DNA of 64,000 bases from an uncultured delta proteobacterium (GTDB lineage: Bacteria > Desulfobacterota > Binatia > UBA9968), in the NCBI GenBank assembly GCA_963755715.1, contig CAVWLW010000003.1, positions 32,001-96,000 on the forward strand. The letters run 5' to 3'. The notes beneath the pieces are model-generated. The model worked only from the letters and a program-made list of their open reading frames with translations. It was not told the DNA's origin and did not search any database. Positions within the stretch are counted from its first letter, which is position 1, and every line of letters begins with the position of its first letter. Shown here piece by piece: positions 10,498 to 48,009 of this stretch. The position numbers were made by a program, and so were the translations under genes.

Positions 10498-10665
10498 TTT
10501 TGGCCGCCAGCGTTTGCAGAAGGGTCTGTTTGCCTTTGCGTTCCTCCCGTCGGCTCCGGGTTCCTCGTTGTCATGTCGTTCCAGCTTTCTTGTGCGGGCG
10601 GGTCATCGGATGAATTGTCGAACGACTTGGAGTGGGTAGCGCAGAGAATGCGGTTCACTGTCATT

Positions 10666-12091: not shown

Positions 12092-12400
12092 AGGGAATTT
12101 TGAAACAAGAAACATCTTTGGATGCGGCGTACATCACACACGCTACAAGCGCTCGCGCAAACCAGCAACCGCAATTGAATACAATGAGAACACTATTTAA
12201 AGACTTAAATCCAAAAGGAGCAGGCGAACGGTTCCTAGCCGGTTTGTATTTGGCTATCCGGACGGACCGCTCTTACCGCCTTGCAGGGCTTTTTCTAAGG
12301 CGTCCATTTCCGCGCCAAAGGTGCGCCAGTCGCCTTTGTCTAGATTGCCGCCCAGCGACATGAGTTTTGGTCGGGATCTGAGGAATTTGGAGAATCGGTC

Positions 12401-16400: not shown

Positions 16401-17057
16401 TTATGGGTGGTCGGCCGCGTCGAGGCGTCCTAAGCGCTTCAGAGCATCGCGTGCCGGCTGAAACGTCGACTGGGCGTCAAGTGCCATGTAATAATAATGC
16501 ACGGCGTGGGATGTATGACCCTCGCTCTCGGCAAGCTCACCGAGCTGATAATGCGGCTCCGGGCGCGTAACATCGCGCATTATGGCGATTTTTAGGTATA
16601 CGCGCGCTTCCGTGTAGGATTTGCGTCCGCGGGCTAGCTCGGCGAGGTGGAGAAGCTCATCGACGGTTCCGCTCATGCCGATCTTTTGTCGTTGAAGGAT
16701 TTCTTCGCAAAGCAGCAGGATATTCTTTGGATCGAACGGCTTCTCAATGAAGTCTACAGCTCCGAGTTTCATTGCATCGACGGCTCGGCTTACAGTTCCG
16801 TAGGCAGTCAGCATGACCACCGGCATCTTGGGTCTAAGGCCTCGTAGATAGCGAAGCAGTTCCAAGCCATCCATCTTCGGCATCTGGATATCGACGAAGA
16901 CGATATCGTAGAGGCCCGCTTTAACTTGCAGCAGAGCGTCATCGCCATTGCTGGCCTTATCCACCTTGTACCCTTCGGCCTCGAGCACCATGGCGAGATT
17001 ATTGCGGATGTTGCGCTCGTCATCGACAACCAAAATGTGAACCTGCGATTGAGTCAT
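16401..17057 (-). CDS. Response regulator: receiver plus TPR-like C-terminal domain, no HTH
   Basis: ILVVDDE, VFVDIQMPKMDG, LTAYG, FIEKPF; helical tail PEPHYQLGELAESEG...YYMALDAQSTFQPARDAL; RBS AAAGGAG. Confidence 0.85.
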   Translation of the reverse strand: MTQSQVHILVVDDERNIRNNLAMVLEAEGYKVDKASNGDDALLQVKAGLYDIVFVDIQMPKMDGLELLRYLRGLRPKMPVVMLTAYGTVSRAVDAMKLGAVDFIEKPFDPKNILLLCEEILQRQKIGMSGTVDELLHLAELARGRKSYTEARVYLKIAIMRDVTRPEPHYQLGELAESEGHTSHAVHYYYMALDAQSTFQPARDALKRLGRLDAADHP

Positions 17058-17113
17058 CGGACTGCTCCTTTCATGCTGTTGCCGGACGAGATTCGCGATC
17101 TATTTGTATAGAG

Positions 17114-17129
17114 CGCATGAAACGTGCCA
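17114..17129 (-). promoter_or_regulatory. Sigma54 -24/-12 promoter driving the leftward REC-TPR operon
   Basis: Minus strand TGGCACGTTTCATGCG; GG-N10-GC spacing exact; about 60 bp upstream of ATG 17057. Confidence 0.7.
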
Positions 17130-17222
17130 TCCCGCGCATTCCAAGCTGCCGACTGCCGATCGGAAAGAGCCGTGAAATTGCAGGCAGTCCTGCTGTGGCC
17201 CAAGAGCCGCGAATCACTGCTG

Positions 17223-17267
17223 CTTGCAACTTGCAAATGTCGATCACTTGTTTCTTGCAACTTGCAA
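17223..17267. promoter_or_regulatory. Tandem palindromic enhancer-like sites CTTGCAACTTGCAA (TTGCA-N3-TGCAA) x2
   Basis: Identical 14-mers at 17223-17236 and 17254-17267, 31 bp apart, between two divergent sigma54 promoters. Confidence 0.7.
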
Positions 17268-17320
17268 CGAGCGGCTCGTTTACCTTCCTTCGAAAGCTAA
17301 CGATTTCGTAATCGAATAAC

Positions 17321-17336
17321 TGGCACTAGGGTTGCA
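17321..17336 (+). promoter_or_regulatory. Sigma54 -24/-12 promoter of the kdp operon
   Basis: TGGCACTAGGGTTGCA matches TGGCAC-N5-TTGC(A); about 40 bp upstream of the first small ORF. Confidence 0.85.
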
Positions 17337-17376
17337 CCACAGCCTAAAGCAGGACTCTACTTTTAGGAGCGATCAA

Positions 17377-17460
17377 ATGGCTGACGCTATATTCATCATC
17401 ATCTCGGTCGTGTTTTTTGTCATCTCATGGTTCTACGTCCGCGGCTGTGATCGTCTGTAA
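17377..17460 (+). CDS. 27-aa hydrophobic peptide upstream of kdpF (second small Kdp-associated peptide)
   Basis: RBS AGGAG; MADAIFIIISVVFFVISWFYVRGCDRL*. Confidence 0.7.
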   Translation: MADAIFIIISVVFFVISWFYVRGCDRL

Positions 17461-17469
17461 GGAGGAACT

Positions 17470-17559
17470 ATGGGACTGGAATATATTATTGGCTTTATCG
17501 TTTCGGTGGTTGTCTTGGTGTACTTGCTTTACGCGCTGCTATGGCCAGAGAAGTTCTAA
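17470..17559 (+). CDS. kdpF: K+-transporting ATPase subunit F
   Basis: RBS GGAGG; MGLEYIIGFIVSVVVLVYLLYALLWPEKF* with YLxYAL..PEKF signature. Confidence 0.9.
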   Translation: MGLEYIIGFIVSVVVLVYLLYALLWPEKF

Positions 17560-17631
17560 CTGAGAGCAAGAAATCGCGGCGATGCGAAACAAATTGAAAA
17601 ATATTGCATTAGTAAGAAGGCGGGAGACGTC

Positions 17632-19353
17632 ATGACGGTAAATGGATGGATTCAAATCTTACTATATATGGCGATAATTTTCGCCATAACCAAGCCGCTC
17701 GGCAGCTACATGTATCGTGTATTCGAGGGGGACCGGCAACCTTTGCCGCGCCTGTTCGGGGCGATTGAGCGGTTGCTTTACAAGCTTTGCGGCGTTGATT
17801 CGAAGCAGCAGCAAGACTGGAAGCAGTACACGCTAGCGATGCTCGTGTTCAGCGCAATCACCTTGCTGGTCACCTACGGCATCGAACGGCTGCAACATAT
17901 TCTGCCGCTCAATCCGCAAAATTTTCCACCGGTCGCCCCGGACTTGGCGTTTAACACGGCGGCGAGCTTTACGACGAATACCAACTGGCAGGCGTATACA
18001 GGCGAGTCGACGATGAGCTACCTGACGCAGATGGCCGGACTCGCCTGGCATAATTTCATGTCCGCCGCTGTCGGCATCGGCATAGCGCTCGCGTTGGCGC
18101 GCGGTATCACCTACCGCTTGCAGGCCGGCGCGGCGAAAACACTGGGCAATTTCTGGGTCGACCTCGTGCGCGCCACAGTGTACGTCTTGATTCCTATCTC
18201 TATCCCGGTCGCATTGCTGCTGGTGTCTCAGGGAGTCATTCAAAACTTTTCGTCATATGTCGACATAACGACACTGGAGGGCGTCAAGCAAACCTTGGCG
18301 ATGGGGCCGGTGGCATCGCAGGAAATCATCAAGGAACTTGGGACTAACGGCGGCGGATTTTTCAACGCCAACAGTGCCCATCCATTCGAAAGCGCTACTC
18401 CGCTGACCAACTTCATCGAAATGCTGCTGATTTTTTCCATTCCAGCCGCGATGACCTACACGTACGGCCGCATGGCGCGGGACCAGAAACAGGGATGGGT
18501 GCTGTTCGCCGCGATGGCGCTTATTTTCGTCGTCGGTGTCTGGGTTGCGTACTCCAGCGAAGCGCAAGGCAATCCACTCATGCGCGGTATGGCGGTCGAT
18601 CAAGGCGCAGGCAACTGGGAGGGGAAAGAAGCGCGTTTCGGTATCGCCAACTCTGCGCTGTTTGCCACTGTCACCACGGCAACTTCGTGCGGCGCGGTCA
18701 ATTCGATGCACGATAGTTTCACCGCGCTCGGCGGGCTCGTTCCGCTCGCCAACATTCAACTCGGCGAATTGGTTTTCGGCGGCGTCGGCGCGGGACTCTA
18801 CGCGATGCTGATTTACGTCATCCTGTCAGTTTTTATCGCGGGGCTGATGGTCGGACGCACGCCGGAATATCTCGGCAAAAAGATCGAATCGCGGGAGATC
18901 AAACTCTCGATGCTCTACGTGCTGATCTTCCCGCTGTTGATCCTTTATTACGCCGGCTGGTCGCTGGTCGCGCCGTACGGCGTTTCATCTCTAAACAACG
19001 CCGGCCCGCACGGCCTCAGTGAAATTCTCTACGCTTATAGCAGCGCCGCGGGCAACAATGGTTCCGCCTTCGCCGGCCTGAACGCAAACACGCTCTGGTT
19101 TAACGTGAGTCTCGGTTTGACGATGCTCGCTGGGCGTTTCTTGATGATCATTCCCGCGATGGCGGTGGCCGGCTCGCTCGTTGGTAAAAAAGCGGTGCCG
19201 GAAAGCTTGGGCACCTTCCCGACCAACGGATCGCTTTTCGTCGTGCTGCTCGTCGGCGTCATCATCATCGTCGGGGCGTTGACTTTCTTCCCCGCGCTCG
19301 CGCTCGGTCCGATCGTCGAACATTTTTTGGCTCAAGCAGGAAAGGTTTACTAA
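17632..19353 (+). CDS. kdpA: K+-transporting ATPase subunit A
   Basis: [37 protein letters not shown]. Confidence 0.97.
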
Positions 19354-19354
19354 C

Positions 19355-21413
19355 ATGGCAGACACACGCTTAAAGGAACGTTCTCTGTTCGATCCGGAAA
19401 TCATGCGGCCGGCGATTTGGGACAGTTTCCGCAAACTGACGCCGCGCCACGTGATCAAGAACCCGGTCATGTTCGTGGTCGAGATCGGCAGCGTGCTGAC
19501 CACTTTGATCTTGGTGCGCGATCTTTTCGCGCCGACGCCAGGATCTCAGCCGCTCTGGTTTACCTTCAACGTCAGTTTCTGGTTGTGGTTCACCGTGGTC
19601 TTCGCCAACTTCGCCGAAGCGGTGGCCGAAGGACGCGGCAAGGCCCAGGCGGCGACGCTGCGCAAAATGCGCAAGGAAACCAACGCGCGGCGCTTGGTTA
19701 ACGGTCATCGGGAAGAAGTCGTGCCCGCGTCGGCGCTCCGCAAAGGGGACACCGTCGTGGTCGAAGCCGGCGAAATTATCCCCGGCGACGGCGACGTGAT
19801 TCAAGGCATCGCATCGGTCGATGAATCGGCGATCACCGGCGAATCAGCGCCGGTCATTCGCGAAAGCGGCGGCGACCGTTCAGCGGTCACCGGCGGCACC
19901 AAAGTTTTGTCCGACCGGATCGTCGTGCGCATCACGGCAAGCCCAGGGCGAATCTTTTCTCGATCGCATGATCGCTTTGGTCGAAGGCGCGGAGCGGCAG
20001 AAGACGCCGAATGAAATCGCGCTGAATATTCTACTCGCCGGCCTCACGCTGGTTTTTCTTTTTGCCTGCGTCACCCTCGTGCCGATGGCGCTCTACTCCG
20101 GCATGGCCACCGTTTCCGTCACTGTTATCGTGGCGCTGCTCGTTTGCCTGATTCCGACGACTATCGGCGGTCTTCTTTCGGCAATCGGTATCGCCGGCAT
20201 CGATCGGTTACTTAGAAAAAACGTGCTCGCCATGAGCGGACGCGCCGTCGAGGCCGCCGGCGATGTCGACACTCTGCTTTTAGACAAGACCGGCACGATC
20301 ACGCTCGGCAACCGTATGGCCACAGAGTTTATCACTGTCGATGGCGTGAGCCCGGAAGCTCTCGCGGACGCCGCCCAGCTCGCGAGTCTCGCCGATGAAA
20401 CTCCGGAAGGCCGCTCGATCGTCGTGCTGGCGAAGGAGAAATACGGACTGCGCGGTCGCGACGTGCAAAGCATCGGCGCAAAATTTATTCCGTTCAGCGC
20501 CCAAACACGCATGAGCGGTTGTGATCTGGACGGCCGCATCATCCGCAAAGGCGCGGTCGATGCGATTGTCAGCTTCGTCGGCGAGATGGGCGGCGCAGTG
20601 AGCTCGCAAATCGAAGGCGTCACTCACGGCATCGCCGATGCGGGAGGCACGCCGCTGGTGGTTTCCGAAGGTAGCGAGGTTCTCGGCGTGATCCATTTAA
20701 AGGACGTGGTGAAGGGGGGCATCAAAGAACGCTTTGCGCGCTTCCGCGCCATGGGCATTCGAACGGTCATGATCACCGGCGACAATCCGCGCACCGCCGC
20801 GGCGATCGCTCGCGAAGCCGGCGTCGATGATTTTCTCGCCGAAGCGACGCCGGAAGCGAAAATGCGTTTGATCAAAGAAGAACAGAACAAGGGCAAATTG
20901 GTGGCCATGACCGGTGACGGCACCAACGACGCACCCGCGCTGGCGCAAGCGGACGTCGGCGTGGCGATGAACACGGGCACGCAAGCGGCCAAAGAGGCCG
21001 GCAACATGGTCGACTTGGATTCCAACCCGACCAAGCTTTTGGAAGTCGTCGAGATCGGCAAGCAGATGCTCATGACCCGCGGCGTGCTCACGACTTTTTC
21101 CATCGCCAACGACGTGGCCAAGTATTTCGCGATCATCCCGGCCATGTTCATGGGCGTCTATCCGCAGATCGCGCCGCTCAATATCATGCATCTGGCGTCG
21201 CCGCAAAGCGCGATTCTTTCGGCGGTTATTTTCAACGCGATCATTATTATCTTGCTTATTCCGTTGGCCTTGCGCGGTGTCCAGTATCGCCCCATCGGCG
21301 CCGGCCCGTTGCTGGCACGTTCCCTATTGATCTACGGCGTCGGCGGGGTGGTCGCGCCGTTCATCGGCATCAAACTCGTCGATTTGGTTTTGGCAGCCGT
21401 CGGACTTGTCTAG
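19355..21413 (+). CDS. kdpB: K+-transporting ATPase subunit B, +1 frameshift near 19946
   Basis: [42 protein letters not shown]; break at CCAGGGCGAA (extra G). Confidence 0.95.
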
Positions 21414-21421
21414 GAGAATCT

Positions 21422-22099
21422 ATGAAAACTTTCACTATCGCTTTACGCGCGACAATCGTTACGTTGGTGTTAACAGGACTTATCTATCCCTTCGTCATGA
21501 CCGGACTCGCTCAAGTGCTTTTCCCATGGCGCGCAAACGGCAGCCTGGTTACGGACGAAAAAGGCCAGGTCGTCGGCTCCGAGTTGATTGCCCAGGGATT
21601 CTCGAATCCCGCTTACTTTCAGCCGCGGCCTTCGGCGGCAGGGGAGAAGGGCTATGACGCGACTTCTTCAGGCGGCTCCAACCTCGGCCCGACATCGAAG
21701 AAGCTGCAGGATCGTATCAACGACGATCTCAAGCGCTTGAAGGCGGAAAATCCGCAAGCCACCGGACCCGTTCCAGCGGAACTTGTCACTACTTCGGCGA
21801 GCGGACTCGATCCGCACCTGTCGCCTGAAGGCATGATCTGGCAACTGCCGCGAGTTGCCAAAGCGCGCGGCGTAGCTCTCGAGCGGGTGAAGGCTGTGGT
21901 CGATGCCAACGTCGAAGGAAGAACATTCGGCGTCTTGGGCGAACCGCGAGTCAACGTGCTGATGGTCAATCTAGCGCTCGATCGCCAATTTGGCCGGCCA
22001 GCTCCGCTTCCTCCGGCTCCTGAAAAGAAAGAGGCAAAGGAAGCAAGCCCAGACAACAAAGGCGGTACTCAATCAGCCGCTCCGGCCGAGAAGCCCTAA
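21422..22099 (+). CDS. kdpC: K+-transporting ATPase subunit C
   Basis: ANGSL, GSELIAQ, YFQPRPS, SGGSNLGP, SASGLDPH, GEPRVNVL. Confidence 0.95.
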   Translation: MKTFTIALRATIVTLVLTGLIYPFVMTGLAQVLFPWRANGSLVTDEKGQVVGSELIAQGFSNPAYFQPRPSAAGEKGYDATSSGGSNLGPTSKKLQDRINDDLKRLKAENPQATGPVPAELVTTSASGLDPHLSPEGMIWQLPRVAKARGVALERVKAVVDANVEGRTFGVLGEPRVNVLMVNLALDRQFGRPAPLPPAPEKKEAKEASPDNKGGTQSAAPAEKP

Positions 22100-22126
22100 C
22101 CAGACGAGAATCAGGAGGGTCGACCG

Positions 22127-22886
<760 letters not shown>

Positions 22887-22916
22887 ATCTGAACTTCACG
22901 AAGAGGAGGAAGGAGA

Positions 22917-24615
22917 ATGGTCATAGGCAAGCCACTGGGGAGATTTTTGTCGGTTACAATACTGTTGAGCTGGACGCTGATGTTGCATCCGGTTCTCGCA
23001 GAGGAAGCTACGCCACCGGGCGGGGCGCCGCCGCAAGCAGCGGAGCCGAAACCTGATCCTGCCGGAGTATCGACGGGCGATAAAACGAACGTCATCGACG
23101 CCGGTGGAAATTCCTTTGCCGTGTCGGAGCCCAGTGACAAAGCCGATCCAGATTACGCCAAAAAGAAAAAGGACTTCGAAGTGTACCAGACCCAGGCAGG
23201 CAAGGAACCACTTGCGACGAAACTTGCCGATGCCGTTGGCCACCTTCGGCTTGCGACGAACTTTAGCTGGACGCTCTTGACCGGCTACCTGGTGCTGTTC
23301 ATGCAAGCCGGCTTCGCGCTTCTCACTTGCGGCTTGGTGCGCAAGAAAAACGCCGCGCATCTAATGATGTTAAACTTTGCTGCCTATGTCTTCGCCTTTC
23401 TCGCTTATTATGCCTGTGGCTTTGCCTTTCAGTTCGGCGCCGTGGCCGTCAACGCCGCGCCAACTAACCTCGGCGGCACGCCGACACTCAATGAGTTTCT
23501 CCTTGGCAGCGGCCAGTGGGGTTTTCTGGGCGGGAAAGGGTTTTTTCTAAGCGGCGCAGGCTACGACGCCGGAAGCAAGTTTAGCGCTCTTCGAAGTCGT
23601 GTTTATGGCGACTGCCGGCTATATCATCGTCGGCGCCATTTGCGAGCGCATTACATTCTGGGCGTTTATTCTGTGCGAACTTTTCGTGGGGGCCATTCTT
23701 TATCCCATGTTCGGCTGTTGGGTCTGGGGCGGCGGCTGGCTGTCGCAGCTGGGCGCCACGATGAACTGGGGACATGGTTACGTCGATTTCGCCGGCTCCA
23801 CCGTGGTCCACGCCGTCGGCGGATTCTGCGCAATGGCTTTGGCTGTGCTCCTCGGCCCGCGTATTGGCAAGTACGGCGCCGACGGAAAACCACGCGCCTT
23901 TCCAGCCCATAACATTGTCTTCGTGGTCACCGGGACATTTATTCTGCTGTTCGGTTGGATGGGTTTTAACCCTGGTTCCACTCTGGGCGCGACGGACTTG
24001 CGGATATCGGTGATCGCGATAAACACCAATCTCGCTGCGGTTGCGGGATCGGCGACGGCGATGATTCTTTGGTACTTTCTGTTTAGGAAGCCGGATATAA
24101 CGATGGCGTGTAACGGCATGCTGGCCGGCCTGGTTGCGATCACCGCGCCTTGTGCCTTCGTGAGCGCCAACTCCGCTGTGGTGATCGGCATCATCGCCGG
24201 CATCGTCGTCTGCTCTGGAGTCTTGTTCAATGAGCGCGTGCTCAAAGTCGACGATCCCTGTGGCGCCGTCTCGGTGCACGGTTATTGCGGTTGGCTCGGC
24301 GCAGTCTGTGTCGGTATTTTCGCCGATGGGACCTACGGGGCCGGCTGGAACGGTGTCGGGGCTGCGAGCTATCTTGGCAAAGCGGGCCAGGGGGTGACGG
24401 GTTTGCTCTACGGCGACTTATCCCAATTCTGGTTGCAGTTGGGCGGTGCCACCCTGTGCATGATCTATGCCTTCGGCTTCACTTACGTCACTTTCAAGCT
24501 GGTCAACGCCATCGTGCCGTTGCGAGTGCCGGCCGAAACTGAACTTGAAGGTCTCGATATTCCCGAGTTCGGCATGACCGCCTATCCCGAGGATGCGCTG
24601 GCTGAAGCGAAGTGA
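22917..24615 (+). CDS. amtB: Ammonium transporter with long N-terminal extension, frameshift near 23580
   Basis: FMQAGFALL, DFAGSTVVH, GWMGFNPGS, NGMLAGLVAIT, DDPCGAVSVH (both pore His), E..GLD..EFG tail. Confidence 0.92.
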
Positions 24616-24886
24616 TCGGCGGAGATTGCTTATCGATAGATAGTGGGAGAAGTCTACCTAGGAGAGAGAGGCTATAGTCACATATCGAGTCGCGGCATAA
24701 AAAACGTTTGGTACGGGCCAATAAAGGAGCAGTGCTGCTTTTGGGGAGTGGCACGCTCCTTTTCGGCGTTTGGTCACAATCTGTGGGTTACGGCGGTTTG
24801 TAGTAGCGTGATTTGCGGCAAGAATGATAAACAGATCAGTTCATTAGAAAAAGTCGATGCTGCGCAACACCTGAAATATTTCTACC

Positions 24887-26044
24887 ATGGGTAAAAAACA
24901 GAAACGCCCTGAAGATTTCCTCGAGCTGGTCGAGCGCGCCAAGCGCGGACGGCTGAAGGTTTATATTGGCTCGGCCGCCGGCGTCGGTAAAACTTATCAG
25001 ATGCTCGAGGAAGCTCACGCGCTCAAAAAGCGCGGCGTCGACGTGGTGTTGGCGTTCATCGAGCCGCACGACCGGCTCGATACCGCGGCGCTGATCGAGG
25101 GACTCGAGGTGGTGCCGCGCCAGCGCGTCGATTATCGCGGCGTGGTTGTCGAGGAGATGGATCTCGATGCGGTTCTCAAGCGCCGTCCTCAGGTTGCCAT
25201 CGTCGATGAGCTGGCGCATACCAACGCGCCGTTTTGCAAAAACAAGAAGCGCTATCAGGACGTGTTGGAACTGCTCGAAGCCGGCATCAACGTCATCTGC
25301 GCCTTCAACGTGCAACATCTCGAAAGCCTCAACGAAATGGTCAAACAGGCCACCGGCGTGGTGGTTCGCGAGACTGTGCCGGACTCGATCCTGAAGCGGG
25401 CCGATCAAGTCGTCGACATCGATCTGGCGGTCGAAGATCTCATCGATCGCCTTAAAGCGGGCAAGATCTATGCGCCCGACAAGGTTGGATGGGCGCTGGA
25501 GAATTTTTTCTTACCGGAAAAACTTGCGGTGCTGCGTGAAATCGCCTTGCGGGAGGTCGCGGAAAGCGTCGATCGCACGGTTGCGGCCAAAGCCGGCAAC
25601 GGTGATGCCGGCCGCAGGTCGGCGGCGAGCGAACGCGTGATGGTTTGTCTGCCCACCCGGCCGCCGCCCAACGGCGCCATGCTGCTTAGACAGGGCTCGC
25701 GCTTGGCGGGCCGGTTGAACACCGACTGGTTTGTTGTCCATGTCGAGACCAAAAGCGAAGCCGGTCACCGGATCGACGCGACACTGCAGCGGTACCTTCT
25801 GGACGACGAGCAAAGAGCCCGAGACTTGGGCGCTGAAGTCGTGCGCCTGCGCTCGGAAGAACCGGTTGACGCGCTCCTCGAATTTGGCCGTGATCATGGC
25901 GTCCGCCATATTGTCGTCGGGCGATCGCACAAGCCTTGGTGGCGTCGTATGTTAGGTCAGTCGCCGGTCTTTAAGCTGGTTACCGAGGCGGCCGGATTCG
26001 ATCTCCACATCGTGTCGTTGGAAGATCGGGAGGCAAAGGAATGA
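24887..26044 (+). CDS. kdpD: Stand-alone KdpD N-terminal sensor (KdpD domain plus USP domain), no TM or kinase domain
   Basis: RGRLKVYIGSAAGVGKTYQML, VDELAHTN, KRYQDV, NVQHLESLN; USP-like RVMVCL...HIVVGRS. Confidence 0.9.
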   Translation: MGKKQKRPEDFLELVERAKRGRLKVYIGSAAGVGKTYQMLEEAHALKKRGVDVVLAFIEPHDRLDTAALIEGLEVVPRQRVDYRGVVVEEMDLDAVLKRRPQVAIVDELAHTNAPFCKNKKRYQDVLELLEAGINVICAFNVQHLESLNEMVKQATGVVVRETVPDSILKRADQVVDIDLAVEDLIDRLKAGKIYAPDKVGWALENFFLPEKLAVLREIALREVAESVDRTVAAKAGNGDAGRRSAASERVMVCLPTRPPPNGAMLLRQGSRLAGRLNTDWFVVHVETKSEAGHRIDATLQRYLLDDEQRARDLGAEVVRLRSEEPVDALLEFGRDHGVRHIVVGRSHKPWWRRMLGQSPVFKLVTEAAGFDLHIVSLEDREAKE

Positions 26045-27880
26045 ATCTTTACAAAAAACTATTGCTGGCCCAGGCGCCGATCGCCATCGCCCTGGCGATT
26101 GTCGGCATTTTTTCGGTGATCGTCGTGTCCTATCTCGGCACTCATTCGCAAACCATTTTGAAGGACAACTACCGCAGCGTGCTGGCCGCGCAGCGGATGA
26201 AAGAAGCCATCGAACGGATGGATAGCGGCGCGCTGTTTATGGTCGCGGGCGAGCGTCAAAAAGGGCTTGAGCAGGTAGAAAAAAATCAGCCGATCTTCGA
26301 AGCCGAGCTGAAAGTGCAAGAGGGGAATATCACGGAGTCGGGAGAGAAGGAGTTCACCGAGGGGCTGCGCGCCGCGTGGATGGATTATCAAACGAAATTT
26401 GCGCGCCTGCAAAAAAGCACGAGCAGCGAAGAGGCAAAACAAATCTACTTCTCCGAGCTGGAATCGGCCTTTTACAGAGTGAAATCGGCCGCCGACGAAA
26501 TCCTGGCGATCAATCAAGACACCATGGTGCGCAAAAGCGATGACGTGAGGCGCACGGCGGAGCGCATGAACGCGGTCACCATCACGGTGGCGCTCGCTGC
26601 CCTTGCGCTGGGACTCATCGTCTCGACATTTTTGACTCGGCGCCTGCTCCGGCCGGTTTCGGCCCTCAGCGAGGCGACGCGAAAAATCGGCGAGGGCAAC
26701 TTCGACACGCGGGCTCACGTGCGGGGCAACGACGAGCTGGCGCAGTTGGCGCGGGACTTCAATGCCATGGCCGCGCGCTTGGCGGAATACCGCAAAAGCT
26801 CGCTCGGTGACTTGCTGCAGGCGCATTTGAGCATGCAGGCGGCGATCGACAGCCTGCCCGACCCGGTAGCGATTTTTAATATCGACGGCAATCTCCAGAA
26901 CGTCAACCGTGCGGCGGAAACGCTGATTGGGCTGAGAACTGACAGGCGGCGCCAAAGAGCCGTTCAAAACCGTCGACGCTGCGACACGAGCCGTTCTCGA
27001 GCGCATGCGCAGTCACGTGCTATCGGGCAAAGGCGCGTTTAACCCGAGAGGGTTCGAAGATGCGGTCCAGCTCCCGACTATGTTGGGCGATCGGTATTTC
27101 TTGCCGCGCGCCACGCCGGTCTACGAATCGCGCGGCGTGATCGTCGGCGCCACGGTGCTCTTGCAGGACGTTACCCGCTTGCGCCGCTTCGAAGAATTGA
27201 AAAACGACGTGGTGGCGACCATCGCGCACGAGTTCCGCACTCCGCTCACGTCCTTGCGCATGGCGGTGCATCTGTGCACCGAACAGGTCGCCGGTCCGCT
27301 CACGGAAAAGCAAGCCGAGCTTTTGCACGCGGCGCGCGAAGATTGCGACCGGCTGCAAGCCATGGTCGACGATCTCTTAGACATGTCGAGGATCGAATCG
27401 GGCCGCGTCGAGCTCTATCCGTTGCCGACTCCGAGCGGCGTGCTTGCCGAGAGCGCCGTGGAACAATTCAAGGCGGAAGCGGAGGCGAAAGGCGTGCGCC
27501 TGAGCGCGGACATCACGATTCCGGAAGTCAAAGTGCTGGCGGATCACGAGCGCGTGGGCCATGTATTTGCGAATCTTGTCGGCAACGCGTTACGCCACAC
27601 CCAACGCGATGGTTCGGTGATCCTGGGTGCGAGCGTCACCAACGGCGCGGTGCGCTTCACTGTAACGGACACGGGCAAAGGAATTCCAAAGGAATACCAG
27701 GAGCGAATCTTTGAAAAGTTTTTCCAGGTCCCGGAGAGCGGACCGAAAGGAACCGGCCTGGGTCTTTATATCGCCAGGGAGATCGTGCGCGGTCATGGCG
27801 GCGACATTGGCGTGGAAAGCGAACCGGGCAGGGGAAGCACTTTTTGGTTCACTTTGCCGCGGGAGACCAAGAGCGCTTAG
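26041..27880 (+). CDS. Membrane histidine kinase (periplasmic helical sensor, HAMP, PAS-like, HisKA, HATPase), KinB-like; frameshift near 26940
   Basis: Two TM, DELAQLARDFNAMA HAMP, AHEFRTPLTS H-box, NLVGNA, DTGKGI, GTGLGL; ATGA overlap with kdpD-N. Confidence 0.9.
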
Positions 27881-27914
27881 AACGGAGCGGGGTCATGGCA
27901 GTACCCACTCGGAG

Positions 27915-28020
27915 TCCTTCGACTTGGCTCAGGACGAACGGAGACGATCTTAAAGTCGTTGATGATTTTCCGTTCATGCTGAGGGTCTCGAAGCATTGCG
28001 AACCTTTTTTAGCAAGGCTC
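27915..28020. repeat. REP/MITE-like palindromic element
   Basis: TCCTTCGACTTGGCTCAGGACGAACGG ... CCGTTCATGCTGAGGGTCTCGAAGCA inverted pair; relatives at 56339-56429 and 63373-63464. Confidence 0.75.
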
Positions 28021-28025
28021 TTTTT

Positions 28026-29447
28026 CTACCCCTCATATTTTTTTCGCTTGCGCCAAAGCGTCGAGGCGTCGATCCCAAGCACGGCGGCGGCTTCGTCCAA
28101 CGTTGCGGTGCGCGCGATCACCCGGGTGATGTGCTCGCGCTCGACAGCGTCCAAGGAAAAATCGCCGCCCACTTGCGGCGCGTCCGCGGCGCGATGGCGC
28201 GCGGCAATGTGCGCCGGAAAGGCTTCCGGTTCGATGATTTGAGCCGGCCAAAGGATCACCGCTCTTTCGATGGTGTTTCTGAGCTCGCGGACATTGCCGG
28301 GCCACGAGTACGCGGTCAAAACATCGGCGGCGGAACTCGAAAGCTCGGGAGGTTGACGCCGCGCCGATTTTGCGAAGAAAATCAAAAAGCGGCGCGCCAA
28401 ACGCAAAATATCCTCCGGCCGCTCGCGCAGCGGCGGCAGCTGCAAGTCGATCACGTTCAGACGATAGAGCAAATCTTCGCGAAACAGGCCTTGGCGCACG
28501 TGCTCGGTTAAATCGCGATTGGTGGCCGCCACGGTTCGAACGTCGGCCCGCCGGGTTTTGTTCTCGCCGAGCCGTTCGAATTCTTTTTCCTCGATGAAGC
28601 GGAGTAGCTTCGCTTGCAGGGAAGGCGAGATGTCGCCGATCTCATCGAGAAAAAGCGTGCCACCCTCGGCCGCCTCGACGCGGCCCGCTTGATCGCGCAC
28701 GGCGCCGGTAAAAGCTCCTTTGGCGTGGCCGAACAGCTCGCTGGTCAGCAATTCCTCGGATAGAGTCGGGCAATTGACGACGACGAAAGGATGGCGGCTG
28801 CGCGGGCTCAATGAATGAATCCACCGCGCCAGCACGCTCTTGCCGGTGCCGCTTTCGCCGCGCAACAGCACCGCTGCGTCCGAGCTCGCCGCCTTTCGCG
28901 CAACTTCAAAAACCGCGCGAAGCTTCGGTGAATCGGATTCCAGATCGCTGTCCGGCGCCGCCTCGCGCAGACGGCCCTCCAGATCGATGACCTGTCGTTT
29001 CAGGTCGCGTTGCTTGATGCATTGATCGACAACGTGACGAATCTGCGCCGGCGTAAACGGCTTGGCCAGGTAGTCGGCCGCGCCGCGTTTGATCGCGTCT
29101 ACTGCGTTGTCGATGGTGGCGTAGGCCGTGATCACCACCACCAACAGATTGGGACAATCGGCGATCAGTTTGGGGATGAGGTCGAGACCGCTGGTGTCGC
29201 CGAGACGGACATCGAGAAACGCCAAATCGTAGGCTTGTTGGGTGAGCGCGTCGAGCGCGCTTTCTCCGGACGATACCGCGGTCACCTGACAGCCGGCTTG
29301 CTCGAGACAGAGCGAAAGCGTGGCGCGGATGTTCTTTTCATCGTCGATGACAAGTACCCGGAGTCTTGGATCCGGAGTCGGTTTTGAGGAGGACCACGAT
29401 GATCCGCCTTGTTTGGGCACTATGCTATCCGAGAGTTGTCGATGCAA
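28026..29447 (-). CDS. Sigma54-dependent response regulator (AlgB/NtrC-like), convergent on the kinase; start uncertain
   Basis: [51 protein letters not shown]. Confidence 0.92.
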
Positions 29448-29501
29448 GCGGCCGCGCGATTGGATCGTCGATGGCGCCGCGAGGCGGGAAACGGCTCGGC
29501 G

Positions 29502-31926
29502 TTACGGTGCTACTTGGACGCCGAGCATGCGGCCGAGATCTTCACAGCAAGCGACCCAACGGCGCGCCGTTTCGTCGCCGCGTTTTTCGGCGTCGCGCTG
29601 ATGGGGATATTCCCGCTTCCACAGCTGATAAAAAATATTTTGGACTTTCCAGAGATGGGTCGTGAACGGGAGCTCTTGAAGAAAGCTCGCGGCGTCGTGC
29701 AATTGCTCGAGTGCGGCCAACGAGGATTGCGTCGCAAGCACGCCGGCCACGCGCTCCAACGACTGCCGGTAGGCAAACTCCAAGGCCGTCATGTCGAGAG
29801 CGATGCCTTCGGCTTTGGCGGACTCAAAAAGGCGGGTGACCTCGGCGCGATCGATCTGCGTTCGTTCCAGCGCTGCGCGCAAATCCTGATTCAATACGAA
29901 CTCCGCCGCGGCGGCAAATCCTTTGGGAAGGGGAATCGCGAGATCGGTGAGAAAACGCATGAGCGGCGCGCGCGACTCGTAAACTTGCCGATAGAGCGCC
30001 GCCGCTTCGGCGAGATTGGCAGCCAGGATTTTCGTCAAGACGCTTCTTTGCTGGTCGTGAAAGAGCGAGCGCAAAGAGTAGTTCGATTCGCCGAAGCGAC
30101 GCTCCATCACGCGCAGGACCGCGGTGAGCTCGGCGCGGCGAAACGGTTCCACGGCGCTTTCAATCACGCTTTGATAGCTTGCGTCATCGCGAAATTCGCC
30201 AACCCCGCCGCTAATGTTGTGGTCGCCCAGATGGAGCACGCCGAAATTGAGCCTGGCAGTTTCCTGGGTAATTCTCGACGTGAGACGAACTCGGCCGAAG
30301 GCGAGCTTGGCTCGGCCGGCGGTGAAAACCTGTTGATCTTCACGGCTGGCGTCGTAGCAGTAGATCGCGGTCTCGCGCGGATAGTCTTCGAACAAAGTGC
30401 TGACCGCGTAATGGGCGCCGACTTTTTCCCAGTCAACCTTGGCGGGCCGGACCGAACGCGCATAGATGTCGGATCCATTGCCCTGCGCCGCGACGTTGCT
30501 TTTGGCCGCCGCCAAGCGCTGGGTAAACTGGCTTTCCAAAGACGCGCCGAAAAGGTCTTCCGCTAGTTGCAAGGCGCGGCCGGCGAACTGGAGAATTTGC
30601 ACGGCTTCGATGCCGGAAATGTCGTCGAAGAACCAACCGCAACTGGTGTACATGAGCATGGCATGGCGCTGCATTTCGAGGAGCTTGAGCGCCGTCACGC
30701 TTTCCGTGGCAGTCAAGCTCCGCCCGGCGTGAGCGGTGACAAAGCTTCGAATGTTTTCCGCCGATCGATCGTGAACGACGTCGATGTAGCCATTGCGGGC
30801 GGCCCAGGGATCGTTGAATAGCGCGCGCGCTTTCTCTTCCCAGCGCGGCGCGATGGTGTCGCGCAGCCAGTCCAGCGCGTTGCGCAGCGGCGTGCGCCAC
30901 GCCTGGTTCCAGCCGGGATGGGCGCCCGAGTTGCAGCCGCAATCGCTCCACCAGCGATCGATGCCGTGGGCGCAGCTCCAGGAGCTTTTCTCGACGATTT
31001 CGACTTCGTCGGTCGGCGGGTATTTTGCCAAGAACTCGCCGTAGTTGGTAAGTTGCGCCGGCGCGCCCGCGCCGATCCGATCTAGGACATAGGCCAGGGC
31101 CATGTCGCCGAAGCGATGATGGTGGCCGTAGCTCTCACCGTCCGTGGCGACGTGCACGAGCTGGGCGCCGTCTCTTTGGGCGAAAGCGCCGGTCAATCTT
31201 TCGATGAAACGATCGCCGTGCGAAAGCAGTCCCTCGAAAGCCACGGCGCGCGCGATCGGGCCGTCATAAAAAAACAGCGCGATCGATCTTCCCGACGGCA
31301 GACGGTGCTGGTAGGCGCGGGTGCCGTCGATGGGCCGACCCTTGAGCTCGTGCCATTTCGCCTCGCCGATCCGGCGCACACGCGCCGCCTGATGCGGCGC
31401 CAGAATCGTAAAACGCAGGCCAAACTCGGCGAGCAATTCGAGAGTTTCCAAATCGACGGCGGTTTCCGGGAGCCACATTCCTTCCGGCGCGCGGTTAAAT
31501 CTTTTTTCGAAGTCGCGCACGCCCCAGATAATTTGAGTGGCGCGATCGCGGCTGTTGGCCAAGGGCATGATGACGTGATTGTAAGCCTGGGCGATAGCGG
31601 CAGCCGTGGCCGGAAAAGTATTTTTGGCTTTCCCGGTCGGCGGCCAAGATCGCGGCGTAGACGTCCGGCGCCTTGACTTCCAGCCATGATAAGAGCGTCG
31701 GACCAAAGTCGAAGCTCATTTTGGCGTAGTTATTGACCAGCTTGACGATGCGGCCTTGTCCATCGAGAATCCGCGAAACCGAATTGGGCGCATAGCATTC
31801 CGCGGTGATTCTTTCATTCCAATCGTGATAGGGCGCGGCTGAATCTTGCAACTCGACGGCTTCGAGCCAGGGGTTTTCCCGCGGCGGTTGGTAGAAATGG
31901 CCGTGAATACAAATGAAGCGTTCCAT
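29502..31926 (-). CDS. GH57-family glycoside hydrolase with DUF3536 domain, frameshift near 31620
   Basis: IHGHFYQPPRENPW, AYNHVIMPL, GMWLPETAVD, ATDGESYGHH, WSCAHG, MYTSCGWFF. Confidence 0.9.
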
Positions 31927-31990
31927 GTGAGGATGCTTGGTCGTGGCACGACGTCAGGCTCGGCCCCGACGGCGTGCGCAAGGCTTGGGG

Positions 31991-33242
31991 TTAGGGATTG
32001 GTCATGACCCAGGTAGTTTTGCGCGGGCCGCGCGGCAATACGACAACGCCGCTTTGCGAAACCGTGTAGCGCTCTCGATCCTCGTCGGCATCGTAGCCGA
32101 TTTGTGTTCCCGATGGGATGACGTTGGCTTTGTCGATGATCGCGTGACGAATCTTACAACCGCGGCCGATCTCGACCCAGTCCATGATCACCGAATCTTC
32201 GATCTGGCTGTAGCTGTGAATTCTGACGTTTCTGCCGACCACGCAGTTGTGCACATAGCTGCCGCTGATGATCGTGCCCTCGGCGACGATCGAGTTGACC
32301 GCCATGCCTTGGCGATCTTTCCAATCGAAGACAAATTTCGCCGGCGGATCGGCGTAGCCGACCGTACGCAGCGGCCAACTGCGGTTATATAAATTAAATG
32401 ACGGGTCGATGGAGCACAAATCCATGCTCGCTTCGTAGTAGGCATCGATCGTTCCCAGATCGCGCCAGTAGCTCGGCTCTTCTCCTTTGGACGGGATCGG
32501 CACGCGGTTTTTGCGGAAGTCGTAGGCGAAGATTTTGCTGCTCTGGATCAGCCCCGGCAGGATATCGCGGGCGAAATCGTGAGTGCTGGCGGGCTTCTCG
32601 GCGTCGGCATTGAGCGAAGCGATCAAGACTTCATTGTTGAAAAGGTAATTGCCCATCGACACGAGCGCATAATTCGGCTCTCCCGGGATCGACTTGGGAT
32701 TTTTCGGCTTCTCGTCAAAGCCAGTGATGCGCCAATCGGCATCGACTTTGATAACGCCGAACTGCGAAGCCTCTTCGATCCTGACCGGCAGCGCGGCGAC
32801 GGTGACGTCGGCGGATTTTTTTTGATGCTCGTCGATCATCTGCCGGACGTTCATGCGATAGATGTGATCGGCCCCGAAAACCGCGACCAACCTAGGATTG
32901 TGGCGCTCGAGCAGATATAAATTCTGATAGACGCAATCGGCGGTGCCTTGGTACCAGTCTTCGCCCGAGCGCATCTGCGCGGGTACCGGCGTAACGAAAT
33001 GGTCGCCGAGAAAATCAGTCGTGCGCCAGCCTCGGTCGAGATGCTCGAGCAGCGACTGGGCTTTAAACTGGGTCACCACGTAAATCGACAGAATGCCCGA
33101 GTTGATGAAGTTGGACAGCACGAAATCGATGATCCGATAGCGGCCGCCGAAAGGCACAGCGGGCTTCGCCCGATGCTGGGTCAAGGGATAAAGGCGTTCG
33201 CCTCTTGCCGCCCGCCATGATTACGCCGAGCACGTACATCAT
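31991..33242 (-). CDS. glgC: Glucose-1-phosphate adenylyltransferase, frameshift near 33205
   Basis: MYVLGVIMAGG/RGERLYPLTQHRAKPAVPFGGRYRIIDF, WYQGTAD, EKP, SMGNYLF, YWRDLGT. Confidence 0.95.
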
Positions 33243-33265
33243 AGACCTCTTATTGGAGTTCTCCC

Positions 33266-34706
33266 TTAATTGACAAGTTGCCGGTACAAATCGACGTAAC
33301 CCTTCGCCGAACGGTCCCAGGAAAAATCCATCGCCATGGCGCGACGCCGAAGCGCGCGTCCAGGCTTTCTTATTGTGAAACACCCCCAAGCTTTGATCCA
33401 CGGCGTCGAGCAAAGCAGGCGCCGTGTAGGGCTCGAAAACAAAGCCCGTGCCGGTTTCGGCGCGGGCATCGTAGTGCTGCACGGTATCTTTCAAGCCGCC
33501 AACGGCGCGCACGATCGGAATGGTACCATATTTAAGGCTAAACATCTGGTTGAGGCCGCAGGGCTCGTAGAGCGACGGCATCAGGAAAAGATCCGCGCCC
33601 GCCTCGATCTGGTGCGCGAGGGGCTCGTCGAAACCGATGCGCGCCGCCACCTGCTCCGGATAGCGCGCCGCGGCGGCGCGAAAAAAATCCTCGTAGCGCG
33701 GCGCGCCGGTGCCGAGCACGACGAACTGAACCTGGCGCTCCATCAGCGCGGCGAAAATATTTTCAATCAGATCGAATCCTTTTTGCGGCGTGAGGCGCGA
33801 GATCATGGCCAAGAGCGGCGTATCGCTCTTATCGGCAAGGCCGAGCGCGCGCCTGAGCTTTTTTTTGCAGGAGCTTTTCAATTCGAGACTGTTCTCGCCA
33901 TAGTGGTCCGCCAGGTAGGGATCTGTCCAGGGATTCCATTGATGGTAATCGACGCCGTTGAGAATGCCGACGAGATCGGCGGCGCGCTGGCGCAGCACGC
34001 CTTCGAGGCCAAAACCCTGCTCGGCGCTCATAATTTCCCTTGCGTAAGAAGGGCTCACGGTGCTGAGCTTATCGGCAAAAACAAGCGCGCCTTTGAGAAA
34101 ATTGATATTGCCGTAAAATTCCAAAAACTGCGGCGTAAAAAAGCTCGCATCGAGATCCAACAGACGCCAATCGGGTGGCCCGAAGATTCCTTGAAAGCCG
34201 AGATTGTGAACCGTAAAAACCGTTTTTGCCGCGGCCAATTCAGGGTAGCGAGCCGGTTGAGCTTTCAGAAAGACGATCGCCAAGGCGGTTTGCCAATCGT
34301 GCCCATGCACGATATCCACGCGCTCGCGGCGCAGCAGCTCCAGAGCGGCGCGGCTGAAAAAGCTAAACCGCTCGGAATTGTCCGGATAATCGCCGCTCGG
34401 CGGGCCGTAAAGAAACTCGCGATCGAAGTAGGCATCGGCACGGATCAAGTAAACCGTCGCACGATTGCCGATCGAGCCCTCGAGCACCGTTGCTTCCTGC
34501 CGGCGGTCGGCAAGCGCGACGGAGAGTTTGTCGGGCATCTCGCGCAAAACGAAACCGCCCTGAAGGGCAGAACGATAGGCCGGCGCGATGACGCAGACTT
34601 CGTGACCGAGCCGTGCCAATGCGACCGAAAGCGTGCCGAGCACGTCCGCCAAGCCGCCGGTCTTGGCGAAGGGCGTGACTTCGGAAGCAATCATCGCGAT
34701 CTTCAT
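33266..34706 (-). CDS. glgA: Glycogen synthase, frameshift near 33355
   Basis: KTGGLADV, HGHDWQT, GILNGVD, PSLYEPCGL, GGLKDTV; tail AMAMDFSWDRSAKGY in another frame. Confidence 0.95.
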
Positions 34707-34757
34707 CTCGGTTCGTTGAACCTATTCAATGCAGTTGTTTGGCGCGAGTTTGCCGAG

Positions 34758-36672: not shown

Positions 36673-36676
36673 TATT

Positions 36677-47971: not shown

Positions 47972-48009
47972 ACAGCAGCCTCACATGGGAGCGCGGCGAG
48001 TTTTGGAAT

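Follow-up and report, generated by a model that had tools for sequence, protein, structure and literature searches.

A divergent P-II family protein linked to kdpC in a putatively sigma54-controlled kdp locus of an uncultured Binatia bacterium

Introduction

Why would genes for P-II proteins and an ammonium transporter lie between kdpC and kdpD, within the locus of a potassium pump? The question is raised by a 64,000-nucleotide stretch of DNA from an uncultured soil bacterium, a delta proteobacterium (Desulfobacterota; Binatia; UBA9968), namely positions 32,001 to 96,000 of the forward strand of contig CAVWLW010000003.1 in GenBank assembly GCA_963755715.1. In it, kdpFABC is followed by a divergent P-II gene that we designate PII_1, a canonical glnK-like gene, an ammonium transporter gene (amt), a short kdpD (kdpD-N) and a membrane histidine kinase gene. 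We call this whole stretch, at its full 64 kb, the window, and all coordinates refer to it; L-numbers denote related loci, G-numbers genomes and X-numbers sequencing runs. The original prediction, made by reading the letters alone, saw in this arrangement a candidate system for joint K+/NH4+ homeostasis.

P-II proteins are classic sensors of carbon, nitrogen and energy status, and transporters of ammonium, bicarbonate and nitrate are known to have P-II-type regulators of their own; SbtB, which is encoded with SbtA, is a P-II-like regulator in a transporter operon. With respect to the pump, Silberberg et al. (2024; PMC11018627) describe KdpD of E. coli and of Deinococcus as inactivating KdpB by serine phosphorylation, and short KdpD/Usp proteins as serine kinases of KdpB without known K+-sensing domains.

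Results

PII_1 is linked to kdpC across related loci

Judged from gene order in relatives, the conserved core of the arrangement is kdpC-PII_1, not the P-II/GlnK/Amt trio. In the window, PII_1 (22127-22561, + strand, 144 amino acids) begins 27 nt after kdpC (21422-22099, + strand; Pfam KdpC, 240 bits). It is followed on the same strand by the glnK-like gene (22548-22886, 112 amino acids; Pfam P-II, 106.6 bits), which overlaps it by 14 nt, and, 30 nt further on, by amt (22917-24615), which a 271-nt spacer separates from kdpD-N. Scanning metagenome contigs with a PII_1 alignment gave 52 loci, which were mapped with the window proteins. At 45 of these, PII_1 is immediately preceded by kdpC in the same orientation, at a distance of 15-117 nt; at the remaining seven, less than 140 nt of sequence is available upstream, which makes them uninformative. 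This strict linkage fits the suggestion, made in the original prediction, that a P-II protein ties Kdp to nitrogen or energy status.

Downstream of PII_1, kdpD-N comes next, without glnK or amt, at 18 loci. Both glnK and amt are present at four (L048, L049, L050 and L077), two of which, L048 and L077, have an intact amt and the full gene order of the window. Four loci from a distant lineage whose KdpB is about 64% identical (L080, L082, L088 and L090) have glnK and then kdpD-N, without amt. Only the last 75 or so codons of amt are left at two loci (L044 and L045), and one (L047) has glnK plus an amt remnant. At seven loci the contig ends after glnK, and the remaining 16 end too early or were not classified. 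The most direct view of the loss comes from L045, where the DNA is 94-97% identical to that of the window: a clean 1,835-bp deletion, exactly window positions 22572-24406, has taken glnK and most of amt but spares PII_1, whose stop codon lies 10 nt before it. By this sequence comparison, selection appears to keep PII_1 while glnK-amt is lost.

In a genus sample of 30 other species genomes, 11 have kdpC. A P-II gene follows it in four of these (G018, G441, G014 and G012), and amt is found at this position in none of the 11.

The synteny is not peculiar to the one assembly. We compared the region with Logan contigs from three soil DNA runs of different studies (X1, X4 and X15). The kdpC/PII_1 junction is bridged by an X15 contig (21910-22180, without mismatch) and also in X4, the PII_1/glnK/amt-start junction by an X1 contig (22542-22981), and the amt/kdpD junction by another from X1 (24407-24909); no single contig of these runs covers the whole stretch from kdpC to kdpD. 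Together with L048 and L077, these contigs settle in the negative the question of whether the gene order is unique to this record.

Several side observations were made in this interval. Contigs of X1 and X4 join 21996 to 24861, skipping 2,864 bp that hold PII_1, glnK and amt; with flanks of 29 and 54 nt and 90% likeness this is a weak observation, and the contigs are probably from related organisms without the insert. At L064 and L093, more than 2 kb downstream of PII_1 gave no match to the window-protein queries. A small conserved membrane-protein open reading frame (ORF), ending ...YGFLQGAWPFG.VE.IWC.VALRRW, lies between PII_1 and kdpD-N at ten loci (L055, L059, L062, L063, L065, L069, L083, L084, L052 and L011) and has no counterpart in the window. 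L011 (G018:C16, about 10150-11900) has a porin-like ORF with a signal peptide after PII_1, then a fragment resembling the GlnK C terminus, which suggests a former glnK(-amt) insert since replaced. The lineage d locus L082 encodes a 361-amino acid KdpC with an insertion and has a 111-amino acid ORF of unknown type before kdpD-N. In G048 (L126/L128), from another family of the phylum, a KdpC with a large internal insertion is followed by a gene for a different, very divergent P-II-like protein of 101 amino acids with the B-loop TERKEDCRIF, and then by kdpD-N; this may be an independent association of P-II with kdp.

PII_1 belongs to a distinct branch of the P-II family

PII_1 is a P-II family member (PF00543, 71.7 bits against a cut-off of 25) that falls far below the equivalog cut-offs for GlnB and GlnK (89.4 versus 202 for NCBIfam GlnB, and 69.9 versus 181) and is about 45% identical to canonical GlnB/K. 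A database search returned 190 relatives, mostly of 141-148 amino acids and almost all metagenomic; those with a name are labelled only 'nitrogen regulatory protein P-II'. We built a tree that also takes in the GlnK-like proteins of kdp loci and the two P-II proteins encoded elsewhere in the genome, with a midpoint root and a small outgroup sample. In it, the PII_1 family is one clade with 100/100 support on a long branch (1.16), apart from the GlnK-like proteins; short forms of 103-107 amino acids are basal, and those of 141-148 are nested within. Family members are 50-97% identical.

The positions K34, G37, Y46, R47, G48, Y51, K59 and D87-G88-E89 are invariant or nearly so. Across 84 sequences the T-loop is almost unchanging (KGAGxQQG..K.YRG..Y.EDS), with Y46, R47, G48 and Y51, which align with canonical P-II, conserved in at least 90%; a one-residue deletion follows Y51. 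The B-loop residues of P-II and R38 hold the phosphates of ATP. PII_1 lacks both the canonical B-loop T-G-x-x-G-D-G-K-I-F and R38: DGE replaces GDGK, the equivalent of K90 is Glu in at least 90% of the 84 sequences, G87 is Ser or Cys, and R38 is Asn or Ser. Q39, K58, R101 and R103 are kept.

An AlphaFold2 model of PII_1 has a P-II core at pLDDT 80-93, with the expected beta-alpha-beta-beta-alpha-beta order and a long T-loop (E2-8, H10-23, E28-33, T-loop, E57-64, H66-81, E88-94). A disordered linker (108-127) leads to a C-terminal helix (128-142), present in most family members, which ends in the conserved LRRKFHEA. The best match in the Protein Data Bank (PDB) by sequence is 8wm7_E (E 3.7e-27), and the ESM Atlas gave only generic 'P-II family' clusters (0.86-0.87). 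When three copies of PII_1 were predicted in complex with the short KdpD, the score was 0.00 against a mark of 0.32, a value that counts neither way on binding.

A scan of genome contigs with the PII_1 alignment gave a single weak match (44% identity), not of the PII_1 family. A profile search of the phylum, whose threshold of 1e-28 did not separate canonical P-II proteins and which matched 243 of 401 genomes, had a best non-self score of 131 bits against 249 for self, and no further PII_1-type gene was found in that sample.

GlnK and Amt are an additional copy

The kdp-linked GlnK has a canonical T-loop, Y51 and a GDGKIF B-loop, and its gene adjoins amt on the common strand, as in GlnK-AmtB pairs. 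The genome has two more P-II proteins, each encoded at an amt locus of its own, with which this GlnK shares 74% and 69% identity; the kdp-linked glnK/amt is hence a third, extra copy. The intact Amt of L048, 91-95% identical to the two amt pieces of the window, scores 363.2 bits on TIGR00836 (cut-off 343.3) and shows by eye the motifs DFAGSTVVH, SVHGYCG, GWMGFNPGS and CWVWGGGW. The Amt carries a signal peptide and is extended at its N terminus by about 115 amino acids. Its nearest PDB entries by sequence are 6eu6 (E 4.5e-61) and 8qj3/8qpf (4.7e-58 for 8qj3), with E. coli AmtB at about 1e-43; 6eu6 and 8qj3 are presumably sensor-type Amt proteins, although the search table calls them just 'Ammonium transporter'.

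The genome also encodes GlnD (723 bits, cut-off 519), so that modification of PII_1 at Y51 is possible, as well as two diadenylate cyclases and a PtsN-like protein that falls below the curated cut-off (113 versus 138.7 bits).

A conserved sigma54-type promoter motif precedes the kdp genes

A predicted sigma54 (-24/-12) promoter, TGGCAC-N5-TTGCA, lies at 17321-17336 on the + strand and is the sole match to TGGCAC-N5-TTGC without mismatch in the window; matches with at most one mismatch occur at chance level (5 found, 4.99 expected). The element is conserved: GGCA[CT]-N5-NTGC stands 140-154 nt before kdpF in every one of the 11 loci whose upstream sequence reaches 330 nt or more, the relatives having TTGCG rather than the TTGC[AT] of the window. 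Some 65-100 bp 5' of the promoter, two copies of TTGCAA-C-TTGCAA (17224-17236 and 17255-17267, + strand, read from the sequence), 31 bp apart, form a putative enhancer for an NtrC-type activator. Under the strict pattern, eight of the 11 loci for which upstream DNA is available have paired TGCAA-N(1-2)-TGCA sites at the same offset, and the other three have variants of them. Thus the GG-N10-GC element, the upstream sites and a gene for a candidate enhancer-binding protein (28026-29447) are all found at the kdp locus by sequence.

That gene, at the far end of the locus, runs convergently on the - strand (29447-28026) and encodes an NtrC-type sigma54 activator with receiver, AAA+ and HTH_8 domains (Pfam Sigma54_activat, 224 bits; Response_reg; HTH_8). 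A convergent gene of this type occupies the far end in seven relatives as well (L011, L012, L069, L076, L083, L084 and L087). Between amt and the activator gene lie kdpD-N (24887-26044, + strand), encoding a 385-amino acid protein with KdpD (Pfam, 303.5 bits) and Usp domains and no kinase core, and the gene for a membrane histidine kinase of Pfam architecture 4HB_MCP-HAMP-PAS-HisKA-HATPase (26041-27880, + strand). The short KdpD scores 376.6 bits on NCBIfam KdpD_non_kinase, whose cut-off is 550. A full-length KdpD (KdpD-Usp-TM-GAF-HisKA-HATPase) with an OmpR-type KdpE was not found at the kdp locus: 16401-29447 holds no OmpR-type gene, and the NtrC-type activator is the sole full-length regulator there.

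All four subunits of the KdpFABC pump are encoded, in the order F-A-B-C by Pfam: kdpF (17470-17559; Potass_KdpF, 33.4 bits), kdpA (17632-19353; KdpA, 810 bits), kdpB (19355-21413; E1-E2_ATPase/Hydrolase), whose product is a P-type ATPase with the TGES motif, and kdpC, all on the + strand; kdpB is frame-broken in this record only. Directly before kdpF, with its own Shine-Dalgarno sequence, is an ORF for a 27-amino acid hydrophobic peptide (17377-17460, + strand) that has no Pfam or NCBIfam match. A near-identical ORF, of pattern MAD.IFI..TVVFF.IS..YV.GCDRL, is present in all 11 loci that reach this position (L053, L055, L063, L069, L075, L076, L087, L011, L012, L049 and L089); the peptide could be a leader or a further subunit akin to KdpF. 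Direct reading, the ORFs and Pfam thus bear out the order that had been proposed, from sigma54 promoter and peptide through kdpFABC, PII_1, glnK, amt, kdpD-N and kinase to the convergent activator, with its spacers and overlap.

PII_1, glnK and amt appear to belong to the kdpFABC transcription unit

To judge by the sequence, PII_1, glnK and amt are part of the kdpFABC transcription unit, because the junctions from kdpC to amt are tight, no sigma54 site was found within kdpC, and the first conserved hairpin comes after amt; this agrees with the earlier statement that neither a terminator nor a promoter is evident between kdpC and the P-II genes. This hairpin (about 24723-24769, + strand; region z = -2.4) is terminator-like, with a stem of about 18 bp, a 3-nt loop and a following T-run, TTTTCGGCGTTT. 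Compensatory stem changes preserve it in L044, L045, L047, L048, L077 and L095, two of which show a 4-nt loop deletion, and nothing comparable is conserved between kdpC and amt. It probably marks the end of a transcript running from kdpF to amt, or is an attenuator. Given so strong and conserved a hairpin, kdpD-N and the kinase gene probably form a separate unit or are expressed by read-through. The original prediction had read a single array on one strand through the kinase; the gene order stood, and what it had missed were this hairpin and frameshifts in kdpB, amt and the kinase gene. A scan of 16800-29600 with Rfam found no riboswitch and a single sub-threshold small RNA match, inside amt on the opposite strand.

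The frameshifts are probably errors of the assembly

Three-frame translation shows one frame change each in kdpB, amt and the kinase gene, and DNA alignment with close metagenome relatives placed the lesions: kdpB has gained one base near 19945, amt lacks two near 23580, and the kinase gene has gained one near 26944. If these were true lesions, kdpB, amt and the kinase gene would be pseudogenes and the locus inactive in this strain; three frame changes within 7 kb, none of them at a homopolymer run, are what such decay might look like. The soil DNA contigs argue otherwise. At 19946, the contig depth without the indel was 13.9/13.9 in X1, 5.89/9.85 in X4 and 3.58/3.58 in X15; at 23578/9 it was 19.6/19.6 in X1 and 4.66/4.66 in X4, X15 not covering the site; and at 26945 it was 28.6/37.9 in X1, 10/10 in X4 and 0/2.84 in X15. 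Independent contigs without the indels thus exist in X1 and X4 at all three sites and in X15 at the first. In addition, L011, L012 and L049 have kdpB in a single frame, and L011 also has the kinase gene in a single frame.

At least three unrelated genes of the window are split in the same way, namely glgB (34758-36681), an AIR-synthase-type gene (38984-39980) and an MFS gene (10666-12133), and several congeneric assemblies have similar breaks in other kdp genes. Two more stretches, 50027-51023 and 53166-54037, are perhaps also frame-split. This points to an indel-prone assembly of the window, with roughly one break per 8-10 kb. Because independent contigs lack the indels, unrelated genes of the window are split alike and congeneric assemblies show similar breaks, we regard the frameshifts in kdpB, amt and the kinase gene as, with high probability, assembly errors; that the three genes are true pseudogenes is very unlikely.

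Neighbouring genes

A gene for a response regulator, comprising a receiver and about 90 amino acids of unknown type (16401..17057, - strand; Pfam Response_reg, 116 bits), lies divergently upstream of the kdp genes. Weak receiver matches occur on the opposite strand 5' of kdpF in L049, L055, L063, L069, L076, L087, L089 and L012. Directly after the activator gene of the kdp locus is a set of glycogen genes on the minus strand (29502-36681; GH57/DUF3536, glgC-like, glgA-like and glgB), of which GH57 is in the equal position in L087 and L011. Two adjacent tandem Hydantoinase_B/oxoprolinase genes (431 and 498 bits) lie at 46277-49767.

Discussion

A working model and its alternatives

We propose, at about an even chance, that the kdp locus is under NtrC-type/sigma54 control, that PII_1 is a regulator dedicated to Kdp, and that GlnK-Amt is a lineage-specific, dispensable addition co-transcribed with the pump. 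The proposed dedication of PII_1 follows from its place always beside kdpC and mostly without Amt; GlnK-Amt has been lost repeatedly and thus would not be essential to the arrangement. In such a system, the membrane kinase (26041-27880), to judge by its domains, would sense K+ or osmotic shortage and phosphorylate the activator (28026-29447), which would bind the paired TTGCAA-N-TTGCAA sites and open the promoter at 17321. A single transcript would carry the 27-amino acid peptide, kdpFABC, PII_1, glnK and amt and end or be attenuated at the hairpin. By analogy with the published work on KdpD, the short KdpD/Usp protein would phosphorylate a serine of KdpB and thereby switch the pump off. PII_1, produced along with the pump, would act as a trimeric T-loop regulator that reports adenylate and 2-oxoglutarate status, and probably also uridylylation by GlnD at Y51, to the pump or its regulators; KdpB, the short KdpD and the kinase are candidate targets. 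Its signal would gate ATP-driven K+ uptake by energy or nitrogen state. Where present, GlnK-Amt would add ammonium uptake during K+ shortage, with NH4+ serving as a partial substitute cation or for the synthesis of glutamate as counter-ion of K+, and GlnK would plug Amt when nitrogen is sufficient.

Several observations weigh against this proposal. Of the 29 metagenome loci readable up to kdpD-N or amt, four have amt and three more have remnants of it, and amt is decaying in close relatives. Of the 11 congeners with kdpC, seven have kdpD-N directly after it, and so do 11 of the 13 other genomes with kdpC in a sample of 100 from the phylum, the remaining two of these 13 being G048 and one that was not called. 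Judging by its residues, PII_1 lacks K90 and R38, so that canonical binding of ATP and 2-oxoglutarate cannot be assumed. As to the transcript, a consensus scan placed weak terminator-like sites inside glnK (22691) and amt (23092 and 24296), and the total of such sites was not above that of shuffles (22 versus 17.3 +/- 5.0). A promoter for kdpD-N and the kinase gene was not found, a sigma70-type scan giving no site in the 271-bp spacer. In metatranscriptome X17, short pieces of 90-99% identity fall on kdpA, kdpB, amt and the kinase gene, none of them across kdpC/PII_1, and they cannot serve to demonstrate transcription, let alone co-transcription.

Since kdpD-N directly follows kdpC in most congeners and phylum genomes, kdpFABC-kdpD(N)-kinase is, from these comparisons, the ancestral frame; a P-II gene between kdpC and kdpD reads as a recurrent minority feature and GlnK-Amt as a further, unstable addition. 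The kdpC-PII-PII-amt-kdpD neighbourhood that was to be sought in other genomes does recur, in a few loci; the rarity of amt, its absence from all 11 congeners and its deletion in a 97%-identical relative speak against the trio as a conserved module. Given the rarity and loss of amt, joint K+/NH4+ homeostasis could be no more than a lineage-specific extension, and nothing in these data supports a role of Amt in handling NH4+ that leaks through Kdp.

The same losses invite a plainer reading, that a glnK-amt cassette was inserted between kdpC and kdpD, its glnK having been duplicated to give PII_1, and is now being lost without ever having had a role in Kdp. The amt remnants in L044, L045 and L047, the clean deletion in L045, the GlnK-like C-terminal fragment and unrelated porin-like ORF at this position in G018, and the seven of 11 congeners without a P-II gene here would all be expected of a passenger, and the joint of 21996 to 24861 in X1 and X4 weakly suggests insert-free forms. 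A passenger would not, however, be expected to form an old, well-separated clade with a near-invariant T-loop that stands beside kdpC in 45 of 45 judgeable loci, mostly without glnK or amt. The L045 deletion, moreover, spares PII_1 to within 10 nt, and the PII_1-glnK pair persists without amt in the distant lineage of L080, L082, L088 and L090. We therefore consider a passenger origin unlikely. That PII_1 is a second GlnK aimed at the neighbouring Amt, the two P-II proteins gating the channel alone or as heterotrimers, is less probable still and indeed hardly credible to us: the 14-nt overlap of PII_1 and glnK in the window and in L048 suggests coupled translation, and R47 and Y51 of the T-loop are kept, but with 18 loci that lack both glnK and amt and four that have only glnK, Amt cannot be the conserved target of the family.

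PII_1 might instead act on transcription in the manner of GlnB on NtrB, binding the kinase or the NtrC-type activator and shifting the balance between kinase and phosphatase; it would then be the transcription of kdp, rather than the activity of the pump, that follows nitrogen or energy state. A histidine kinase and an NtrC-family sigma54 activator at one locus follow the regulatory logic of NtrB/NtrC, canonical P-II binds NtrB, and GlnD is present in the genome. Set against this, PII_1 appears to be transcribed with the pump and is divided from the kinase gene by the terminator-like hairpin, and the kinase of lineage d shows a mere 26-36% identity, as against 49-60% for PII_1; we judge this mode of action improbable. 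Lastly, PII_1 could be a cytoplasmic K+ sensor in which the change from GDGK to DGE and the loss of R38 make nucleotide binding depend on a monovalent cation. The replacement of Lys by Glu parallels the pyruvate kinases, where K+-dependent enzymes carry Glu and K+-independent ones Lys. We hold this to be a long shot. If it were true, K+-loaded PII_1 would give the short KdpD/Usp kinase its missing K+ input and shut the pump once cytoplasmic K+ is restored, and in loci with GlnK and Amt, NH4+ would be brought in as a substitute cation.

Relation to known systems

As to PII_1 as a Kdp-dedicated regulator, full-text searches of openly available papers turned up neither a kdp operon with a P-II gene nor one driven by sigma54, though comparative P-II surveys may mention the arrangement, and no P-II regulator of a P-type ATPase was found in print; the remark in the original prediction that the architecture is not known from the literature agrees with this. 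The principle is known from GlnK-AmtB and from P-II on a nitrate transporter (PDB 8wm7), in both of which a P-II-type protein is dedicated to a co-encoded transporter; the kdp-linked case would be a variant of it.

The likeness to GlnK-AmtB of E. coli and most prokaryotes lies in a glnK directly before amt, canonical GlnK loops and an Amt that passes TIGR00836. Here, by contrast, the pair is inside a kdp operon under a sigma54 promoter common to kdpFABC, is the third copy in the genome and is dispensable in close relatives, and the Amt, with its signal peptide and long N-terminal extension, is nearer to 6eu6 and 8qj3 than to E. coli AmtB. With cyanobacterial P-II on the NrtBCD ABC transporter (8wm7), the locus shares a small, presumably trimeric P-II-fold protein encoded beside, and probably expressed together with, the transporter that it is expected to gate. 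The candidate partner at the kdp locus, however, is a P-type ATPase system. Compared with SbtB, PII_1 is of the divergent canonical GlnB/K branch with a C-terminal helix of its own, not SbtB-type.

PtsN (EIIA-Ntr) acts on KdpD in E. coli and rhizobia, and a PTSNtr-KdpDE-KdpFABC pathway is reportedly the subject of a separate paper. There too a signal protein of nitrogen status feeds into the control of Kdp; the protein family and the proposed target are different. The circuit of GlnB, NtrB, NtrC and sigma54 is similar in having a P-II protein, a histidine kinase, an NtrC-family activator and a sigma54 promoter with paired upstream sites; it differs in that here the regulated genes are those of a K+ pump, the membrane kinase has a periplasmic four-helix bundle, and the P-II protein lacks the ATP-loop lysine. 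As for NH4+ and the pump, Buurman et al. in 1989 and 1991 are said, by the titles of their papers, to have dealt with partial replacement of K+ by NH4+ and with NH4+ cycling via Kdp.

The closest parallel for the short KdpD is that of Deinococcus geothermalis (PMC11018627): both loci have a stand-alone KdpD+Usp protein without histidine-kinase core near kdpFABC, and the serine of the KdpB TGES motif is kept. Unlike that system, the present one has a separate kinase and an NtrC-type activator, which would supply transcriptional control, and a P-II gene between kdpC and kdpD-N. The Deinococcus input is given there as c-di-AMP, and with its two diadenylate cyclase genes the genome of the window may have a c-di-AMP input too.

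If a branch of the P-II family is indeed genetically tied to a P-type K+ pump, the principle of the dedicated P-II protein would reach into potassium homeostasis. The series of loci in which GlnK-Amt is present, decaying or absent offers a natural series on the value of ammonium uptake during K+ starvation. PII_1 itself would be a candidate answer to a question raised by Silberberg et al. (PMC11018627), namely how short KdpD/Usp serine kinases without K+-sensing domains are controlled.

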